A DNA stretch of 64,000 nt from a bacterium (GTDB lineage Bacteria > Krumholzibacteriota > Krumholzibacteriia > LZORAL124-64-63): assembly GCA_024231905.1 (NCBI GenBank), contig JAAEQC010000102.1, positions 234,974 to 298,973 of the forward strand. Direction: 5' to 3'. Below the pieces are notes generated by a model that was not told the DNA's origin, made no database searches, and worked only from the letters and a program-made list of their open reading frames with translations. Below, piece after piece: positions 11,853 through 20,619 of this stretch. The position numbers and the translations under genes are program-made. Each line of letters begins with the position of its first letter. The first letter of the stretch is position 1.

Positions 11853-12260
11853 ATGAGGAAGCCATTCTTGATGTGTGCCCTGGCGGTGCTCCTGGCGGCT
11901 CTCCCCTGCGGGAGCGCCGGGGCCGCCGAGGCGGACAGCGTGCGCGTGGACCTGGTCTTCGGCACGGACGTGGACCGCGAGACCCGCGACATCGTCGGCG
12001 AGGCTGTGTTCTTCGCCCCCGACGTGGAGCGGGTCTTCTGCATGACACGGGTGTGGGGTCTGGCGGGCGATACCAGCGTGACCCACGCCTGGTACCACGA
12101 AGGCGAGACCAAGGCCCGGGTGGATCTGCCCGTGTTCGGCGGGCACTGGCGGACTTGGTCGTCCAAGCTCATCCTGCCGGCCTGGACCGGGGCCTGGGAG
12201 GTCAAGGTGCTGGACGCCGACGGCTCGGTGCTCGCTTCCGCATCTTTCGAGATTCGCTGA
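11853..12260 (+). CDS. Small secreted hypothetical protein (signal peptide; possibly DUF2914-like)
   Basis: N-terminal MRKPFLMCALAVLLAALPCGSAGA signal, GGAGGG RBS, 135 aa, compact coding. Confidence 0.5.
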   Translation: MRKPFLMCALAVLLAALPCGSAGAAEADSVRVDLVFGTDVDRETRDIVGEAVFFAPDVERVFCMTRVWGLAGDTSVTHAWYHEGETKARVDLPVFGGHWRTWSSKLILPAWTGAWEVKVLDADGSVLASASFEIR

Positions 12261-12295: not shown

Positions 12296-14167
12296 ATGAC
12301 GAGGCGCGGGACGGGTCCCATGACGCGGTTTCTGCCGGCCATGCTGGCCGGCCTGGCGGTGTTTCTGGCCGCCGGTTGCGGCGGTACGGGCGGGACCGGG
12401 GCAGGGGGATCCACGACCGGCGCGGGACAGGCCGGGCGCCTGCACTCGCGGGTCGAGACCGCCTACTCTCTCCAACGTGACGGCGAGGTCCTCGACCTCA
12501 TCCGCACCCTGGCCGGACGCTATCCCGGCTACTCCCGCTGCGACGAGGTGCTGGTCATGGGCGTGGGCGCCGCCCGGCGCCTGGACGATACGGACGCGGC
12601 CCTGGCCCTGACCGACCGGCTGCTCCAGCGCCATCCCCACAGTTCGCTCGTGGACCCGGCCCTCCTGCAAGGCGCCGAATTGGCCGTGGCCGCCGGCGAC
12701 ACCCTGCGCGCCTGCAGCTTTCTGCTCGCCTACCATGACCGGGCGCCGAACGGCGGGACCGCTCCGCCGCGCCAGACGTCCTTTTTTCACGGCCTGGGCG
12801 CCGACGACTTGGCCGAACTCGGGACGCACCACGCGAACAGCGAACTCGCTCCCTGGCTGGGTTACCTACGGACCCGCGCCCTGCTCGTGCAGGCCCGTTA
12901 CCCGGCGGCTACGGACCAGGTGGCACGGTTGGAGGCTTCGGCGCCGGAGGCGGACTGGACCGTCCGTGCCCGCGCCCTGCTTTCGGCCCCGACCACGGCC
13001 CTGCGGCGTCCCCTGCCCACCGGTGGCGGCGCCGTGAGCGCCGGCCGCATCGGTGTCTTGGCTCCCCTGACCGGCCGCTATGCCCTCCTGGGCAATGCCT
13101 ACGTGGACGCCTGCATGCTGGCGGTGGTGGCGGCCAACGCCGAGGCCGACAGCGTCTTCGAGCTCCAGGTGGAGGACACGGCCGGTGATCCGGTGGTGGC
13201 GGCTCTGGCCGCACGCCGGCTCTGTGCCGAAGGGGGCAGCATCGCCCTGGTGGGGGCCATGCTGAGTTCCACCACCGCCACGGCCGCCGTGGTGGCCGAC
13301 CAGTGGCAGGTGCCGGTGGTCTCGCCCACGGCTACCAACGACCGGGTGTGGGAACTGGGCGGCGGTATCTACCAGCCGAACCTGACCAGCGTCTACGAGA
13401 TCCGGTTGCTGGCGGAACTGCTGGTGCCGGTTTTGCTGAAAGAGCGCGTGGCGATCCTCCATCCGGACGACCCGGAAGGCCGCCGGCACGCGGAGGTCTT
13501 CCGCACGGAGATCGAATCCGTCGGCGGCGAGATCGTCCACGTGGCCGCCTTCGCTCCCCGCTCGACCGATTTCCGGGCGCCGATCCTGGCCGTGCGCGAA
13601 ACGCGGCCGGAGGTCATCTTCGTGCCGGCCTCCGTGGACCAGATGGCCCTGGTAGCGCCCCAGCTCGACTTCTATCGCTGCGGCTCCCTGGTGGTGGGGT
13701 TGAGCGGCTTCAATAGCCCACGCCTGCTGGAACGGGCCGGCACGGTCCTGGAGGGACTCGTCTTCCCGGACGATCTGGCCCTCTTCCCGGCCAGCTGGAC
13801 CGCCGAATTCAACACGGTCTGGGCCGCGGACGAGCACCCGCAGGAGGCCACGGCCTTGGCCCTGAAGGTGTATCAGGCCACGCGTATGCTGCTGGATACC
13901 CTGCAGCGGAGCGGCGCCGCCGAGCGCTCCCAGTTGACGGCCGCCCTGGGCCTGCGCCTGGCCAACCGGGACGTGGACGCAGCGGGCCCGGAATCCTTCG
14001 CCGAGACCGTGCGCCTGGTGCGCAAGGGTGAGATCGCGCGCTTCCCGGCCGAGGTGTACCGAGAGAGCTGGGAACTCACCGAGGGTGCCCTGGCCGATTC
14101 CCTGGCGGCGGCCGCCGCCGATACGGTCGGGTCCGGATACGACGAGGATCTGTTCGAGGAGGAATGA
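12296..14167 (+). CDS. Lipoprotein with an N-terminal helical TPR-like domain and a C-terminal LivK-type periplasmic-binding fold (LpoA-like architecture)
   Basis: Lipobox LAAGC after the signal peptide, a Gly-rich linker, an alpha-helical repeat region, then a Peripla_BP_6-like domain (GRIGVLAPLTGRYA...VVSPTATNDRV...). The start is placed at ATG 12296; the upstream part of ORF 11873.. overlaps the previous gene. Confidence 0.6.
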   Translation: MTRRGTGPMTRFLPAMLAGLAVFLAAGCGGTGGTGAGGSTTGAGQAGRLHSRVETAYSLQRDGEVLDLIRTLAGRYPGYSRCDEVLVMGVGAARRLDDTDAALALTDRLLQRHPHSSLVDPALLQGAELAVAAGDTLRACSFLLAYHDRAPNGGTAPPRQTSFFHGLGADDLAELGTHHANSELAPWLGYLRTRALLVQARYPAATDQVARLEASAPEADWTVRARALLSAPTTALRRPLPTGGGAVSAGRIGVLAPLTGRYALLGNAYVDACMLAVVAANAEADSVFELQVEDTAGDPVVAALAARRLCAEGGSIALVGAMLSSTTATAAVVADQWQVPVVSPTATNDRVWELGGGIYQPNLTSVYEIRLLAELLVPVLLKERVAILHPDDPEGRRHAEVFRTEIESVGGEIVHVAAFAPRSTDFRAPILAVRETRPEVIFVPASVDQMALVAPQLDFYRCGSLVVGLSGFNSPRLLERAGTVLEGLVFPDDLALFPASWTAEFNTVWAADEHPQEATALALKVYQATRMLLDTLQRSGAAERSQLTAALGLRLANRDVDAAGPESFAETVRLVRKGEIARFPAEVYRESWELTEGALADSLAAAAADTVGSGYDEDLFEEE

Positions 14168-14173
14168 CGTCCG

Positions 14174-14890
14174 TCAGCGTTCGTAATAGGGGCTGCGAAA
14201 ATTCCAGGTCATCTCGATCCAACGCCCGGCCCCGGGATCTACTCGCCAGCCGAAAACCCACTGCCCGATGGCTTCCAGAACCGCCTGGCCGAAGACTTCG
14301 CTGCCGGTGGTGTTGGTGATCATGGCTTCCTGCACCTGGCCGTCGGGCCCCACGAAGACCGCCGCCCGCACCACGATGACCGGCTGGCGCCGCTCGAAGT
14401 CGCTGATGCCGAGGGGATACTCCGGTCGCACCTGGTGGAGGATGAACCAATCGGGATTGGACTGCCGGGGCAGGGCGAGTTCCACCTGGGTGCGCTCGGA
14501 GGTTTCGCCCTCGGCGTAGGTCTCCGAGGGATCGGATTCGCGGCTCTCGTCGGCGCGCTCGGGTGTGGGCTCGGTGGCGTCGGGGGATAGGTCCTCGGGC
14601 TCGATCTCCACCTCGGCCGGCGGCGGCGGAGCCTGCAGGGACTGGGGGAGCTGGTGGATCGCGTCGGAGCCGTCCTCGATGGAGATCTCCGGCATGATGC
14701 GCAGCTCGTCCGGGGCGCCGTAGTATTCGAAGCGCTTCTTGATTTCGTTCTCGTCCGGACCGAGCAGCACCAATCCCACCAGGGCCAGGATCGCTACGGC
14801 CACGGCGGCCAGCAGACGCTTGCCCCCGCCGCTCTTGAAGGCGGCCTGGGCCCGGGTGGTGAAGCTGCGGGGGTGCGACGAAGGGTCCAT
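14174..14890 (-). CDS. TonB-family energy transducer-like protein
   Basis: N-terminal TM anchor, Pro/Glu-rich spacer (PPPPAEVEIEPEDLSPD...), and a C-terminal TonB_C-like domain (VIVVRAAVFVGPDGQV...). The start is placed at MDPSS (ATG complement at 14888-14890). Upstream ORF extensions were rejected. Confidence 0.55.
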   Translation of the reverse strand: MDPSSHPRSFTTRAQAAFKSGGGKRLLAAVAVAILALVGLVLLGPDENEIKKRFEYYGAPDELRIMPEISIEDGSDAIHQLPQSLQAPPPPAEVEIEPEDLSPDATEPTPERADESRESDPSETYAEGETSERTQVELALPRQSNPDWFILHQVRPEYPLGISDFERRQPVIVVRAAVFVGPDGQVQEAMITNTTGSEVFGQAVLEAIGQWVFGWRVDPGAGRWIEMTWNFRSPYYER

Positions 14891-14898
14891 GGTTCCGA

Positions 14899-17265
14899 TC
14901 ACCTGCGCCGCGCCGGGCGTTTCCGGATTTCCACGTAGTCCCATGCGCTTCCGCTTCGTTGCAGTCGTCCCATGCTCCAGCCGTGTCCATCGTGGTATTC
15001 GAGGACGTGTCCGTCCCCGCCCAAGGGAAGTCCGGGCTCTCCCCATGAAACTAGGGCTTCGCCGGGACCGGGACCAACCGGCGCCAGGGGATACCAGGGC
15101 AATTGCCCGTCGATGGTGCCCCAGGTGCGGCCAGGATCGCCGCCATTTCGGGCAGTTAGGCGGTCCAGGACCGCGCTCTCGTAGTGCTTCAGGAGATCCG
15201 GAGTGACCGCGCCGACGATGCCGCGTAACAGGGCGCGGGCCTCGGCCGCCTGCCACGCCGGTCCAGCCAGGCGCAGGCCGTCTGACATGGTCGTTGCATG
15301 GGGCAGGTGGACCTCCAGGGCCGGGCAGGACGTGTGGCGCAGGAGATAGGCCCAGGACGGGCCGACGGTGGTCCGCACGCCGGCGGTCCACAGCAGGCTT
15401 AGGGCGCTGTCGGTGGCCGCGGCCCAGGGCTGGCCCATCCGGCTGCCCGGGTGGTGGAAGAGCCGGGCAGTGTCCGGGTGGGCGCTGCGTCCGATGGTGA
15501 GGAAGAAATCGGCTTCCACGCGCTCGGCCAGGGAGATCTTGGCGGTCCCGCCCAGGACTGCGCTCCCGTCCCTGGTCAGGACGGCCGTGGCCCCGAGCCC
15601 CTGGAGCAGGCGGACCAGCTGACGCGCCGTACCCAGATTCACTTCCGCTCCGCGCAGGCCGCCCGGTCCGGTCCGGTCGGCGTCAGCACCGCCGCCCGCC
15701 GGGTCGATCACGAAGGTGAGCCGTTCGAGGGACGGAGCCAGGGCGATCGTGACCGGAGGATCCGTACGGGAACCATCCCCGGCGGGTCCCCGGGCCAGGG
15801 CCTTGCGGCCTGCCGCGGTCCACAGGGCCGTTCCGCCGTCCCGGCGGGGTATGGCCACGCGGCCGGCCGGTGGCGATGGAGGCTGATCGTTCACGAGCCG
15901 GGCCCGCCAGGGCTCCGCCGGGGGCGGCCCGGCCACCGCGGTCCACTGCCAGCCGGCGGGCAGGGCCGCCGTGGCGATCTCGATGCTCACCGCCGTGCTG
16001 TCGGCGGCCAGGAACGCGGGCGCACCGGACAGGTCGTCGGCGGACAGGAGGGCTTCCGGCACGCCGTGGGGGTGCGCGGCCACGGTCGCTCCGCCGGGCC
16101 AGGTGATCCTGCCGGCCGGCGGCGGTGCGCCGGTGGGCGTCAGCCAGCTGACCAGGGCGAGGGATCCGTCCGTGCCGGGACCGTCGAGAGTCACCGTCAT
16201 TTGGAGCACGGTGGCGGCGGCGGGACGTAGCCAGGTGCGCTGTACGGGGGCCGCCCGGCCGGCCAGGTTGCTGCCGCGCAGGACGAGTTCGGCAGCGACG
16301 CCTCCCGCCTGGGGTGGCGCCGTCCACTGGACCGTGCCGCCGTCGAGGGACCGCCGGTGCGCCACCGTCCGGCCATCCAGTTCCAGGGAGAACGAGGCCG
16401 GGTCGCCGGCGGGAGAACCCTCGGCGCCGGCGCCCGGCCGCCGCTCCGGCGCGAATACCCACTTCAGGTCCGATCCGGCAGGCCCCACGGTCAGCGTGTC
16501 CGGCTGGAGCGCCTGCCAGCCCGGATCGCCGGCGGCGAAGTACTCCAGCAGGCCCAGGAAGTAGGCTTCGGCCTCCAGGCGCTGTTTGGCCGCCCGGGAG
16601 AGCAGGTCGGCAACGCCCGGGTGGGAGATCATGGCCGGTTCGCCCAGGACTGCCGGTACGGTGGCGTCCCGCAGCACCCGGAAATTGCCGGGCAGAATCC
16701 GGGCCGGAGCGATCTCCAGGTTCTTGACCAGGTGGCGGTGGATGGCCCGGGCCAGGTCCAGGGACGCTCCGTCCGCGCCCAGGGGGTGGTAGGTCTGGGT
16801 CTCGTTGATGGTGGGGTCGTACGAGGCATTGCTGTTGTGGTGAATCGAAAGAAAGACATCGGGTTGTATGGAGTCGGTGAAGGAAACCCTGAAGGCGAGG
16901 TCGCCGGCCAGAGTCGAGTCGGCCGGGGTCAGGAAGTCCCGATCGGCCGTGCGGGTGAGGTGGACGCCGGCGCCCGCCCACTCGAGCAGGCCGCGCAGGT
17001 GGAGGGCCACGCCCAGGTTCACCTCTGCTTCCGTCAGGCCGTTGGGACCCAGGGCGCCGCGGAAATGGCCGCCGTGGCCGGGATCCAGCACCACGATGCG
17101 CCCCTGGAGGGGGCCGAAGTCGGCGGGGCCGAAGGTCTCGCGCAGAGCTTCGTAACCCGGGGGAGCGCCCGGGGGGAGGTCCGGGGCGGGTGGTCCGCCG
17201 CAGCCGCCGCCCAGGGCGGCGAGGGCCAGGAGGCAGGTGGTGGCGGGGGCCATGCGTCGCGTCAT
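14899..17265 (-). CDS. Lipoprotein N-acetylmuramoyl-L-alanine amidase (Amidase_3) with a second, degenerate Amidase_3-like domain
   Basis: Start MTRRMAPATT... with lipobox LGGGCGG. Domain 1 is intact (RIVVLDPGHGG, FLSIHHNS, LGEPAMISHPG). The C-terminal domain is IDPAGGG / TIGRSAH and lacks the His ligands. The 1545-aa ORF 14899..19536 is truncated here because its upstream portion is antisense to selA. Confidence 0.8.
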   Translation of the reverse strand: MTRRMAPATTCLLALAALGGGCGGPPAPDLPPGAPPGYEALRETFGPADFGPLQGRIVVLDPGHGGHFRGALGPNGLTEAEVNLGVALHLRGLLEWAGAGVHLTRTADRDFLTPADSTLAGDLAFRVSFTDSIQPDVFLSIHHNSNASYDPTINETQTYHPLGADGASLDLARAIHRHLVKNLEIAPARILPGNFRVLRDATVPAVLGEPAMISHPGVADLLSRAAKQRLEAEAYFLGLLEYFAAGDPGWQALQPDTLTVGPAGSDLKWVFAPERRPGAGAEGSPAGDPASFSLELDGRTVAHRRSLDGGTVQWTAPPQAGGVAAELVLRGSNLAGRAAPVQRTWLRPAAATVLQMTVTLDGPGTDGSLALVSWLTPTGAPPPAGRITWPGGATVAAHPHGVPEALLSADDLSGAPAFLAADSTAVSIEIATAALPAGWQWTAVAGPPPAEPWRARLVNDQPPSPPAGRVAIPRRDGGTALWTAAGRKALARGPAGDGSRTDPPVTIALAPSLERLTFVIDPAGGGADADRTGPGGLRGAEVNLGTARQLVRLLQGLGATAVLTRDGSAVLGGTAKISLAERVEADFFLTIGRSAHPDTARLFHHPGSRMGQPWAAATDSALSLLWTAGVRTTVGPSWAYLLRHTSCPALEVHLPHATTMSDGLRLAGPAWQAAEARALLRGIVGAVTPDLLKHYESAVLDRLTARNGGDPGRTWGTIDGQLPWYPLAPVGPGPGEALVSWGEPGLPLGGDGHVLEYHDGHGWSMGRLQRSGSAWDYVEIRKRPARRR

Positions 17266-17496
17266 GTTCCATCCTTTCGCGGCGTTGGGTCGTGGACCGA
17301 TCCTAGCGCAGGTCCGGGCCGCTGGAAACCGTCTTCCGCACAGGGCTCCCGCCCGGGGCTGGTGCCTGGACAACCCGTGTCCCGTCTGGTAACTTGGGCC
17401 CTTCGCGGAGGCTCGGCGACCGGGTGCTCCCTGGCCGCTGCGGCGGCCGTTTGTCGTAGGGGTCTGATCGCTCTGTCCGGCGACTCCGCTCGACCG

Positions 17497-17519
17497 TTCT
17501 GTCCGATCATTCTGTCCGA
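17497..17519 (+). promoter_or_regulatory. Direct repeat TTCTGTCCGA x2 (13-nt spacing; a third TCTGTCCG copy at 17472) upstream of selA
   Basis: Seen directly in the 276-bp divergent intergenic region between the amidase and selA. Function is unknown. Confidence 0.2.
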
Positions 17520-17541
17520 CCACTGGGGGCCAACCGGTTTC

Positions 17542-18966
17542 ATGAACGACCCTTCGTCCCGTCTGCGGGAGATCCCGCAGGTCAGCGCCCTGCTCGAGCA
17601 TCCGCGCCTGGCGGTCCTCCTGGAGGGTCGACGGCGTTCCTGGCTGCAGCGCGTGATCCAGGACGCCCTGTCGGATCTGCGCCGCGAATTGCTGGAGGAC
17701 GGCGGTACGGTCCGGAAGCGCGACGCCCTCGTGGACCAGGTCGTCGCCCGGGTGGAGGACTCCTACCGCGAACTCACGAATCCCGCCTGGACCCGGGTCC
17801 TGAACGGTACCGGCGTGGTGGTCCACACGAACCTGGGCCGGGCGAACCTGGCGCCGGACGCCGTGGCGGCCATGGCGGCAGTGGCCGGCCACAACACGGA
17901 CCTGGAGTACGATCTGGCGGCCGGGGCCCGCGGACACCGGGGTCGTCAGGTGGAGGCCAAGGCGGCCCTGTTGGCCGGGGCCGAGGACGCCCTGGTCATC
18001 AACAACAACGCCGCGGCCGTCTGGCTCGCCGTGCGCTTCACGGCCGGCGGCGGGCGGGTGGTCATCTCCCGGGGGGAGATCGTGGCCATCGGCGGTTCGT
18101 TCCGCATGAATGAGATCCTGGCCGAGGCGGGTTGCGAACTGGTGGAGGTCGGCACCACCAACCGCACGAGCCTGGCCGACTACGCCGCCGAGCTGGACGT
18201 GCCGGGCACCGCGGTCATCAAGGTGCATCGGAGCAATTTCTCGGTGGAAGGTTTCACCGAGGACGTGTCCCTGGCGGATCTGGCGCAGCTGTGCAGTGAG
18301 CGCGGCCGCCCGCTGGTGTACGACGCCGGCAGCGGTGCCCTCTTTCCCATGGCGGAACTGGGCTTGCCCGCCGGCGAGTTGACCCTGGACCAGGACGTGG
18401 CCTGCGGTCCGGACCTGGTGACCTGCAGCGGAGACAAGCTGCTCGGGGGGTGCCAGGCGGGTATCATCCTGGGCCGGGCCGACCTCATCGCGGGTTTGCG
18501 GAAGCACCCCATGCGCCGGGCCTTCCGCGTGGACAAGACGACCCTGGCAGCCCTGGACGCGGTGCTGAGCGCCTACCTGCGCGCGGTGGATCGTCCCCCG
18601 GTGCCGACCCTGGAGCAACTGGGCGCCGACCTGGAGTCGCTCCAGGACCGGGCCGAGAAACTGCTGGCCGGACTCGCCCCTCTGGCGCCCGCCGGTTGGC
18701 GGGGGGAAGTCGTGCCCGGGGTCTCGAGCGTGGGCGGCGGCTCCTTCAGCACCGCCGCCATCGAATCGCGCCTGGTCCTGTGGCAGGCGGAGAAGACGGA
18801 TCTCGAGGACGTTCACAGGCGATTGCGGACGGGTGACCCGGCCCTGGTGGGCCGGATGAACAACGATGGTTTGGCGGTGGACGTGCGGACCCTCGGGGAC
18901 GACGAATTGCCGCTGGTGATCGCGGCCTTCAGCGCAGCCTGGACCCAGGCCGCTAGGTCGGCATAA
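17542..18966 (+). CDS. selA: L-seryl-tRNA(Sec) selenium transferase
   Basis: SelA signature including the PLP-lysine region SGDKLLGG.QAGIILGR and VHRSNFSVEGFT. ATG at 17542. Confidence 0.8.
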   Translation: MNDPSSRLREIPQVSALLEHPRLAVLLEGRRRSWLQRVIQDALSDLRRELLEDGGTVRKRDALVDQVVARVEDSYRELTNPAWTRVLNGTGVVVHTNLGRANLAPDAVAAMAAVAGHNTDLEYDLAAGARGHRGRQVEAKAALLAGAEDALVINNNAAAVWLAVRFTAGGGRVVISRGEIVAIGGSFRMNEILAEAGCELVEVGTTNRTSLADYAAELDVPGTAVIKVHRSNFSVEGFTEDVSLADLAQLCSERGRPLVYDAGSGALFPMAELGLPAGELTLDQDVACGPDLVTCSGDKLLGGCQAGIILGRADLIAGLRKHPMRRAFRVDKTTLAALDAVLSAYLRAVDRPPVPTLEQLGADLESLQDRAEKLLAGLAPLAPAGWRGEVVPGVSSVGGGSFSTAAIESRLVLWQAEKTDLEDVHRRLRTGDPALVGRMNNDGLAVDVRTLGDDELPLVIAAFSAAWTQAARSA

Positions 18967-18990
18967 CGAAGGAAACGGGAGCGACCGCAC

Positions 18991-20619
18991 ATGAATGATC
19001 AACCCCGTGATCTGCCCGTCTTCATCGCCGGCCTGGAGGCTGCGGAGGCGAGTCTGCAGGGTGGCGAGGGATTCTGGCCCGACGTGGAACGCCTCACCGG
19101 CGGCGACCTTGCCCGTAGCCTGGACGACGCCCTGGCCGGGGCAGCCGCGCCCCGCGTGTGGCTCTTCGTGCACGAGCCCGGCCAGCCCCAACTCGGGGTC
19201 GTGGCGGCCCTGACCTACGCCCGCGTCCTCGGCGGACGGGACCAGGCGGCCATCGTGCTCGACGGGGACGACAGCACCACGGTCCTGTCCCGCTGGTCGG
19301 GGCGGGAGGATGCCGAAGGATGGATCGACATGGTGCGTTACGGCACCTCGGTGCTGACCTCCGGGGTCGCGTTGCCCTTCGCCGGGCGGACCGCCTATCT
19401 GCTGGGCGTAGGCTCCTATGCGCCCACGGACATCACCGCCGGCGAGGTGGACGAGTTCCTGGGACGCCTGCGTCGCCAGGCAGACGACGTGCTCATCGTG
19501 TGCCCGGTGCCGGTGGCCGGCCTGTGGGGCAAGCACGCGGACATCACGCTCATGTGCGTGGACCGCCAGGGGCGGTCCGCGGCGCGGATCGCCGAACTGG
19601 GTGACGAAATGGCTGCCGTCGGCGCGGCGCCGGACGGTCTGGTCGCTTATGGCGAGCCCATGGCAGAGCCTGTGATCGAACCCATGGCCGAGACCGAGGA
19701 CGAGTCGGCCGACGCCCCTGCGGAGGAGACCGTACTACCCCCGGTGGACGACCTCTTCGCCGAAGTGGATGCGGTCGTGGACGAGGAACCGGTGGACGAG
19801 CCGGCGGATGAGCCCGGTAACGAAGCGGAGAGCGAAACGGCCGGTACGGTCGCCGCTGCTCTCGACGCCGCCGAACCGGACGAGCCCTCCGACAGCTTCC
19901 AGGTGGAGGCTCCCACCCGGCGCAGCACCTCGGGCGTGTTCTGGCTCGCGGCCGCCGTCTCGGTGGCGCTTATCGCAGTAGTGTCCATCTACTATTTCAA
20001 GTTCGTGCGCACGGGCGACGACGGCCTGGGCGCTTCGCCTCCGGTGGTGGCCGAGGCGCCTTCGACCGTCGTGCCGGCGGGCGGCCAGGCGGAAGAAACC
20101 GGCGTCGTCCAGGATCAGGGGATCCCTGCGACCGCTGATTCCCAGGCCGTGCTTCCGGTCGGGGATGACCAGGGCACGACGGCGACGGAAGGGGAAACCG
20201 AGGTGCCGGTCCAGGAGACGGACTTGCCGCCGGCGGATCCCACGGCGACCGCGGGCACCGATCCGGCAGCCGGCCCGGCCGACACGACTCCGGAACCGGT
20301 TGCCGATTCCCTGGTGGAGGATCCGGTCTCGTCCGGCGATCCATTCACCGAGCCGGTCGGCCGCGACGGCTGGGCCCTGTGGGTGTACTCGTTCCCCGAG
20401 AGCGAAGACGCCGACCGCCAGGTGTCCGTCCTGCAACGACGGGGCGTCACCGCCACCGTGCGCACGGTCGAGATCGCCGACAAGGGACGCTGGCACCGGA
20501 TCTACATGGGCAACTTCGCATCCCGCGCCGACGCCCGCGACGCCATGCCGGCCCTGCTTGAGCGCCTGCGGACCGACTGGGCCCAGCCCGTGCGGTTCTA
20601 CGCCGCGACCGACGACTGA
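18991..20619 (+). CDS. SPOR-domain membrane protein with an N-terminal cytoplasmic domain and a long acidic/Pro-rich linker (cell-division-associated)
   Basis: One TM segment (VFWLAAAVSVALIAVVSIYYF). C-terminal SPOR-like domain (WALWVYSFPESEDADRQVSVLQRRGVTATVRTVEI...RIYMGNFASRADA). The N-terminal roughly 200 aa resembles a P-loop-less ParA/MinD-like fold. Confidence 0.7.
   Translation: MNDQPRDLPVFIAGLEAAEASLQGGEGFWPDVERLTGGDLARSLDDALAGAAAPRVWLFVHEPGQPQLGVVAALTYARVLGGRDQAAIVLDGDDSTTVLSRWSGREDAEGWIDMVRYGTSVLTSGVALPFAGRTAYLLGVGSYAPTDITAGEVDEFLGRLRRQADDVLIVCPVPVAGLWGKHADITLMCVDRQGRSAARIAELGDEMAAVGAAPDGLVAYGEPMAEPVIEPMAETEDESADAPAEETVLPPVDDLFAEVDAVVDEEPVDEPADEPGNEAESETAGTVAAALDAAEPDEPSDSFQVEAPTRRSTSGVFWLAAAVSVALIAVVSIYYFKFVRTGDDGLGASPPVVAEAPSTVVPAGGQAEETGVVQDQGIPATADSQAVLPVGDDQGTTATEGETEVPVQETDLPPADPTATAGTDPAAGPADTTPEPVADSLVEDPVSSGDPFTEPVGRDGWALWVYSFPESEDADRQVSVLQRRGVTATVRTVEIADKGRWHRIYMGNFASRADARDAMPALLERLRTDWAQPVRFYAATDD

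Follow-up and report, generated by a model that had tools for sequence, protein, structure and literature searches.

An intact and a degenerate Amidase_3 domain combined in a predicted lipoprotein of Krumholzibacteriota

We analyzed a stretch of 64,000 nucleotides from a Krumholzibacteriota genome (GenBank assembly GCA_024231905.1, contig JAAEQC010000102.1, positions 234,974 to 298,973; hereafter the window) and characterized in it a gene for a 788-residue amidase in which an intact Amidase_3 domain (domain 1) is followed, after a long spacer, by a second domain of the same fold (domain 2) that retains none of the four catalytic residues. The comparison with homologues indicates that domain 2 is an old pseudoenzyme that several phyla have kept under selection. 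The role that we tentatively favor for it, at somewhat less than even confidence, is that of a module that holds or positions peptidoglycan without cutting it.

Amidases need tight control, and to our knowledge this control is exerted by a separate protein in every well-studied case of a cell-wall amidase. A fusion of a live and a dead amidase domain that is maintained across several uncultured phyla would be of moderate interest for specialists in the control of cell-wall hydrolases. The protein would provide a compact, single-polypeptide system for studying the guidance or restraint that a pseudo-hydrolase domain exerts on a wall hydrolase. All carriers are represented by metagenomes only, which sets a practical limit on work with native hosts.

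The two Amidase_3 domains

The Pfam Amidase_3 model (PF01520), whose gathering score is 27, matches the protein twice. The whole protein scores 147.1 bits, and the best stretch spans residues 58-239 (profile positions 1-172 of 174). This first stretch carries the motifs DPGHGG (residues 61-66) and SIHHNS (140-145) quoted in an initial annotation of the window, and residues H64, E79, H142 and E209 (HEHE) align to the CwlV motif and are invariant in 120 close homologues. The fold of domain 1 matches that of solved amidases, 109 of its 190 columns are conserved at 90% or above, and its mean identity reaches 77% with homologues that are 40-65% identical overall. Domain 1 would be expected to hydrolyze the bond between N-acetylmuramic acid and L-alanine (MurNAc-L-Ala).

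Between the third zinc ligand and the catalytic glutamate, AmiA/B/C-type amidases carry an extended insertion that includes an autoinhibitory helix. Domain 1 has no such insertion, as judged from the alignments and from its H142-to-E209 spacing of 67 residues, which equals that of CwlV. At the sequence level, CwlV, CwlD and LytH match domain 1 over its full length, AmiA, AmiC and Bartonella AmiB only over its N-terminal half, and the NCBIfam models for AmiA/B/C score 45-70 bits against cut-offs of 400-700. The AMIN domain of AmiB and AmiC has no counterpart in the protein, where Pfam matches fall only in the two Amidase_3 stretches. On these grounds we classify domain 1 as an Amidase_3 domain of the CwlD/CwlV/LytH type and not of the AmiA/B/C type. 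A separate feature of domain 1 is an extra loop at residues 106-122 (ADRDFLTPADSTLAGDL), with no counterpart in CwlV, AmiC2 or domain 2. It shows the lowest predicted local distance difference test score (pLDDT) within domain 1 in the AlphaFold model, its residues D108, L119, D122 and L123 are highly conserved, and it may act as a specificity or gating loop near the active site.

Taken alone, domain 2 exceeds the gathering score of the same Pfam model with 42.1 bits (E 1.3e-10) and aligns to its positions 2-172 of 174. A profile-profile alignment of the two domains with hhalign gives a probability of 99.2% (E 9.4e-20) at 27% identity, and the domain 2 profile matches solved amidases with E-values down to 1e-16 (PDB 5emi). 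In the AlphaFold model both domains present the same order of 12 helices and strands, and the pLDDT of domain 2 (91-98) is the highest in the model. Such agreement between the two domains is well outside what chance would give. The two motifs reported for this region, IDPAGGG and TIGRSAH, are found at residues 520-526 and 590-596.

The catalytic positions of domain 2 were read from the CwlV alignment and from the domain-domain alignment, which pair H64 with A523, E79 with G539, H142 with G592 and E209 with H653. The initial annotation had described a loss of histidine ligands, which A523 and G592 bear out, but the loss is wider. Since the counterpart of E79 is G539, the glutamate ligand is lost too, and the catalytic glutamate is likewise gone (H653). 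No conserved histidine, aspartate or glutamate near the old site provides a substitute ligand, because E541 aligns with the non-ligand E81 and H596 is not conserved. All three zinc-ligand positions, as well as that of the catalytic glutamate, carry other residues in this protein, in the 120 close homologues and in the wider family, and domain 2 is almost certainly unable to bind the catalytic zinc, in agreement with the earlier suggestion that it is catalytically dead. From its sequence, we regard domain 2 as an Amidase_3 homologue by descent that is not a functional amidase: the alignment recovers the Amidase_3 fold and none of its zinc ligands. Both outcomes that the initial annotation named as refuting it, zinc ligands in the second domain or a different fold, are thereby contradicted.

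A recent internal duplication was considered as the source of domain 2 and is unsupported, domain 1 (27% identity, 40-90 bits) being about as distant from it as unrelated amidases are (about 60 bits). The protein contains no match to Peptidase_M23, and domain 2 is not classified as a LytM factor; with EnvC, NlpD and DipM it would share a logic at most, and not family membership.

The gene begins with an ATG at position 17265, with an AGGA about 10 nucleotides upstream, and ends with a stop codon at 14899-14901; its product is identical to the protein with locus tag GY838_08595 of a metagenome-assembled genome (MAG). A longer open reading frame in the mechanical list for the window (14899-19536) was rejected as high-GC read-through upstream of the real start; the G+C content of the window is about 70%. 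The N-terminus, MTRRMAPATTCLLALAALGGGC, ends in LALAALGGGC22, and AlphaFold predicts a helix at residues 5-20. Cys22 is conserved in at least 90% of 118 homologues. Because the signal peptide ends in this conserved cysteine, with an L-[AT]-[GA]-C lipobox in most homologues, the protein is a predicted lipoprotein, and the overall description offered at first, a lipoprotein with one intact and one degenerate Amidase_3 domain, stands. A Tat signal was also weighed on account of an N-terminal TRR and ruled out, as the motif is not conserved in homologues.

The region between the domains had been described as about 300 residues of unknown fold. It is shorter, at about 267 residues, and consists of immunoglobulin (Ig)-like beta-sandwiches; a further tail of about 100 residues follows domain 2 (Table 1). 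Compared with PDB sequences, the spacer profile yields only noise (best E 0.05, a collagen adhesin), and the best match of the tail is non-significant (E 0.36). Pfam scans of the spacer and the tail in 26 members each returned nothing at E <= 0.001, the single best value being 0.004 in one member, and the tail has no Pfam match at E <= 0.1. Conserved residues of the tail are D719-G720, P747, H753 and W766, within DG..W and H.LE motifs. The tail is present in the Krumholzibacteriota/Eisenbacteria-type proteins of about 750-860 residues and absent from a form of 680-690 residues attributed to Hydrogenedentota.

Table 1. Position of the amidase gene, its predicted parts and neighboring genes in the window
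Feature	Window position	Strand	Residues	Description and basis
Amidase gene	14899..17265	minus	1-788	Predicted 788-aa lipoprotein with active and dead Amidase_3 domains; translation, start region
Signal peptide and lipobox	17200..17265	minus	1-22	Cys22 the predicted lipidated residue; read from sequence
Domain 1	16531..17100	minus	56-245	Intact Amidase_3
Domain 1 zinc ligands	17074-17076; 17029-17031; 16840-16842	minus	H64; E79; H142
Domain 1 catalytic residue	16639-16641	minus	E209
Domain 1 extra loop	16900-16950	minus	106-122
Spacer	15730..16530	minus	246-512	Two eight-stranded Ig-like beta-sandwiches (about 246-349 and 352-444) and a smaller four-stranded beta unit (about 450-495)
Domain 2	15202..15729	minus	513-688	Amidase_3 fold, catalytic positions replaced
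Domain 2 replaced positions	15697-15699; 15649-15651; 15490-15492; 15307-15309	minus	A523; G539; G592; H653
Domain 2 His/Cys-rich set	15325-15456	minus	604-647	H604, H605, H644, C647
Tail	14902..15201	minus	689-788	Two short helices, then a small beta unit of about five strands; AlphaFold secondary structure
TonB_C-like gene	14174..14890	minus		238-aa membrane-anchored protein; ATG 8 nt past the amidase stop
TPR-like + Peripla_BP_6 lipoprotein	12296-14167	plus
Small DUF2914 lipoprotein	11853-12260	plus		E 4e-20
selA (selenocysteine synthase)	17542-18966	plus		E 6.5e-113; divergent from the amidase
SPOR-domain protein	18991..20619	plus		SPOR at aa 459-522, E 2.5e-9 (Pfam); context only

Distribution and conservation of the two-domain design

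With the whole protein as query, more than 120 full-length homologues were recovered, about 750-860 residues long, the named ones belonging to Candidatus Krumholzibacteriota; phylum assignments throughout are the names given by the source records. A motif scan of one genome per species identified 39 family loci, nearly all Krumholzibacteriota by record title, in which domain 1, wherever the contig permits, is encoded some 1.4 kb upstream of domain 2, together with one ordinary Lachnospiraceae amidase. When the domain 2 profile was searched against 1.84 billion representative proteins, 195 representatives fell below 1e-30, and the best 150 of these 195 are almost all proteins of 650-860 residues with two Amidase_3 stretches. 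Short matches to this profile were considered as free-standing dead domains and rejected as gene fragments that start inside domain 1 or the spacer and carry no signal peptide.

Further subfamilies are named Eisenbacteria or Eiseniibacteriota (e.g. UniRef A0A832MLY5) and Candidatus Hydrogenedentota, the latter with proteins of about 686 residues that lack the tail, and single records labeled 'FCB group' and 'Deltaproteobacteria' (one MAG) also belong to the family. Eleven MAGs titled 'uncultured Fibrobacteraceae' carry the gene, with a domain 2 that is 40-50% identical to the Krumholzibacteriota form; either the family reaches Fibrobacterota or these titles are placeholder taxonomy. A different arrangement of live and dead domains, with the order reversed, is seen in a metagenome protein of 872 residues (P0171), where the first two of three Amidase_3-like domains lack the catalytic residues (-ANE and REST at the four positions) and the third is HEHE. 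Where database entries for the family carry a name, it is 'N-acetylmuramoyl-L-alanine amidase', 'MurNAc-LAA domain-containing protein' or 'hypothetical protein'. Many entries under the amidase name, or with no name at all, have a second domain that cannot be an amidase.

To quantify conservation, both domains of 311 two-domain proteins were aligned to family hidden Markov models. Domain 1 is HEHE in 302 of the 311, and in nine proteins gaps at one or several of these positions leave the set incomplete. Domain 2 retains none of the four catalytic residues in 268 proteins and a single one in the remaining 43, and never two. Small residues (Gly, Ala or Ser) occupy position 539 in 94% of the proteins, position 592 in 80% and position 523 in 57%. 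R538 and R593, which adjoin lost ligand positions, are conserved, R538 being kept in 88%. Positions that are near-universal across phyla are D521, G525, G536, R538, G558, R565, H604, S608, G611, A615, T645, C647, P648 and A649, and mean column conservation is 0.61 in domain 2 as opposed to 0.33-0.50 in the spacer.

These near-universal positions, and the retention of domain 2 in 311 proteins of several phyla, argue that it is an old pseudoenzyme under purifying selection and not a decaying remnant. The loss of every catalytic residue and the variation of the replacements by lineage are what a functionless relic of an old duplication or fusion, left to drift, would lead one to expect. Yet the reading frame is intact in all 311 proteins, domain 2 is more conserved than both the spacer and the tail and includes several invariant positions, its model confidence is very high, and the spacer never occurs without domain 2 in any lineage sampled. 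We consider a functionless relic essentially excluded.

The conserved residues could also mark a new active or metal-binding site, formed by S608, H604 and D521 or by H604, H605, H644 and C647, and the degree of conservation across the 311 proteins is high, at 100% for S608, 99% for G611, 88% for H604 and 84% for C647. The second of these sets is conserved in the Krumholzibacteriota subfamily, where it forms a His/Cys-rich group. The motif is, however, not a known nucleophile elbow, and across phyla position 605 alternates between histidine and tyrosine and position 644 between histidine and glutamine. In addition, H604/H605 correspond to Y159/H160 of domain 1 and P648/A649 to P204/A205, which are conserved there yet non-catalytic; H604/H605 and P648/A649 therefore look like core residues of the fold. 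From these sequence comparisons, we judge that domain 2 is most improbably an enzyme or metal-binding module of a new kind.

Possible roles of the degenerate domain

The reading that we favor, as a leading candidate short of an even chance, takes domain 2 to be a non-catalytic module for holding or positioning peptidoglycan. Domain 1 would be the sole catalyst, releasing stem peptides from the glycan. Domain 2 retains the amidase scaffold and the glycine-rich loops round the old metal site, with ligand positions occupied mostly by tiny residues (Ala, Gly, Ser) and flanked by R538 and R593. With its distance and orientation to the active site fixed, it would let the enzyme read one strand or stem peptide as it cuts another, and a lipid anchor would tie the whole protein to a membrane that faces the wall.

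Several observations are consistent with this arrangement. The full-length AlphaFold model forms a single confident compact body (mean pLDDT 88.6), and its predicted template-modeling score (pTM) of 0.90 for a protein of five parts means that AlphaFold is confident of their relative placement. The spacer has a conserved length (median 262 residues, 5-95% range 238-293, in 299 proteins) at an identity of just 21-37%. Together, the model and the spacer length suggest a fixed geometry between the two amidase domains. No free-standing domain 2 was found, the short matches being fragments, in keeping with a role in cis. A catalytically silent amidase domain with a binding function has a precedent in the staphylococcal endolysins LysSA12 and LysSA97, the central amidase domain of which is described as having no lytic activity of its own and as raising both cell-wall binding and overall activity (PMC6024855). 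These differ from the window protein in being phage lysins directed at Gram-positive organisms, with a CHAP peptidase as the active domain, and their silent domain is not known to have lost its metal ligands.

Other points weigh against a peptidoglycan-holding role. The conservation of the cleft loops in domain 2 is also to be expected from fold stability alone, and several conserved positions that domain 2 shares with domain 1 (Y159/H160, A172 and P204/A205 in the latter) may be structural. The residues that replace the catalytic set also differ between phyla (AGGR, AASQ, EAGS and others), which disfavors one strictly conserved ligand pocket.

In the main rival reading, which we regard as possible but doubtful, domain 2 would instead regulate domain 1 in cis, either as an allosteric activator or stabilizer or as a gate that keeps the domain 1 cleft blocked pending a signal. 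As an activator or stabilizer it would bring into a single polypeptide the function of GerS toward CwlD and of ActH toward LytH. A regulator of this sort would be the amidase-fold counterpart of the degenerate LytM factors. Pseudo-hydrolase regulators are established (EnvC/NlpD, DipM), the closest relatives of domain 1 (CwlD, LytH and AmiB) all need partner proteins, and the pTM implies fixed contacts between the domains. Against this, the catalytic set of domain 1 is complete and invariant, and a spacer of about 265 residues is a long route for a simple lid. Domain 1 also has no AmiA/B/C-like autoinhibitory insertion that could be released, which makes a literal copy of the EnvC/NlpD mechanism unlikely. 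The role of a regulator in the EnvC/LytM sense, suggested at first, stands as an analogy, and a role in binding or positioning peptidoglycan is at least as plausible.

Comparison with known systems places the protein apart from each of them. The catalytic domains of the CwlD/CwlV/LytH type (PDB 7rag, 1jwq, 4rn7, 7tj4) occur alone or with ordinary wall-binding modules and have no second, dead amidase domain; CwlD and LytH depend on GerS and ActH as separate partners, whereas the window protein has its dead domain fused. The Escherichia coli amidases AmiA, AmiB and AmiC with EnvC and NlpD (PDB 8c0j, 8c2o, 4bin) resemble it in that an Amidase_3 domain is paired with a dead hydrolase fold in a diderm periplasm. 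There, however, the dead partner has a Peptidase_M23 fold, is a separate protein and displaces an autoinhibitory helix that domain 1 lacks. Animal non-catalytic peptidoglycan-recognition proteins (PGRPs) have an amidase fold that has lost one zinc ligand and is kept as a peptidoglycan reader, but their fold is Amidase_2, and they serve as eukaryotic immune receptors with no active enzyme attached.

For a pseudo-amidase of the Amidase_3 fold, mycobacterial CwlM offers the clearest precedent. It is an Amidase_3 homologue with degenerate zinc-binding positions (His/Arg) whose essential role is regulatory and non-enzymatic (PMC4946905), a precedent that speaks for regulation in cis. CwlM differs from domain 2 in being cytoplasmic and stand-alone and in activating MurA when phosphorylated, whereas domain 2 belongs to an exported protein, shares its chain with a live amidase and retains none of the four catalytic residues. 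Literature searches, including searches for pseudoenzyme amidases and for Krumholzibacteriota amidases, found no description of a tandem of live and dead Amidase_3 domains. We know of no earlier amidase-fold pseudoenzyme that acts in cis in the periplasm, of which the window protein would be the first. It is conceivable, though we hold it with reserve, that the proteins make up an undescribed multi-phylum family (Krumholzibacteriota, Eisenbacteria, Hydrogenedentota and relatives) in which the amidase carries, at a fixed distance, its own zinc-less reader or regulator domain in place of the separate activators EnvC/NlpD, ActH and GerS, which control such enzymes in model bacteria.

Gene neighborhood

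The amidase gene and the TonB_C-like gene that follows it probably share a transcription unit. The TonB_C-like protein has a single transmembrane helix and a linker rich in Pro and Glu; its TonB_C-like end scores 23.0 bits against Pfam TonB_C, just below the cut-off of 24.6, and a functional link between the two proteins is possible. The pair recurs in four Krumholzibacteriota loci (L001-L004), the amidases of which are 40-51% identical, and in one Eisenbacteria locus (L046). In the window and in the four Krumholzibacteriota loci, the gene order smc-SPOR-selA / amidase-TonB_C / Peripla_BP_6-DUF2914 is the same; ftsY too lies on the selA/SPOR side of the amidase, and the genes that flank the amidase-TonB_C pair on either side are on the opposite strand. 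At one Hydrogenedentota locus (L045) and one 'Deltaproteobacteria' locus (L047), the TonB_C-like, SPOR and Peripla_BP_6 neighbors are all absent.

This arrangement raises the alternative that domain 2 and the tail form a docking platform for an envelope protein (TonB_C-like, SPOR, or TPR + Peripla_BP_6) and thus tie the amidase to a trans-envelope or division complex, which we consider unlikely. The tight spacing of the amidase-TonB_C pair in the window, its recurrence and the constant gene order would fit such a platform, as would the tail-less form of 680-690 residues at the Hydrogenedentota locus, which has no TonB_C neighbor, although this co-variation rests on a handful of loci. Conversely, domain 2 is equally degenerate and conserved in that form and in the 'Deltaproteobacteria' protein, each seen at one locus without these neighbors, and a docking partner therefore cannot explain domain 2 in general, though it could explain the tail. 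A stable core region could by itself account for the synteny with housekeeping genes (smc, ftsY, selA, ribosomal proteins), and the TonB_C match in the window falls below the Pfam cut-off.

The SPOR protein that the initial annotation placed nearby is encoded on the opposite strand, behind selA (Table 1), which makes its synteny a weak sign of a functional link. The gene is flanked by selA and smc in the window and the four Krumholzibacteriota loci and was not seen in the 6-kb flanks of the Eisenbacteria locus. About 330 residues at the N-terminus of its product lack a Pfam match; a hydrophobic segment comes next, and a linker that is acidic and rich in Pro leads to the SPOR domain. The window contains no second Amidase_3 gene.

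On the other side of the amidase, the lipoprotein with TPR-like and Peripla_BP_6 regions may be a synthase activator similar to LpoA and not a solute-binding protein, its homologue in L002 giving a weak hit to LppC (LpoA). At the Eisenbacteria locus the Peripla_BP_6 gene sits instead within a Liv-type ABC operon, and a DUF2914 gene accompanies the Peripla_BP_6 gene in all related loci. Because selA adjoins the amidase gene, the source organism presumably uses selenocysteine.

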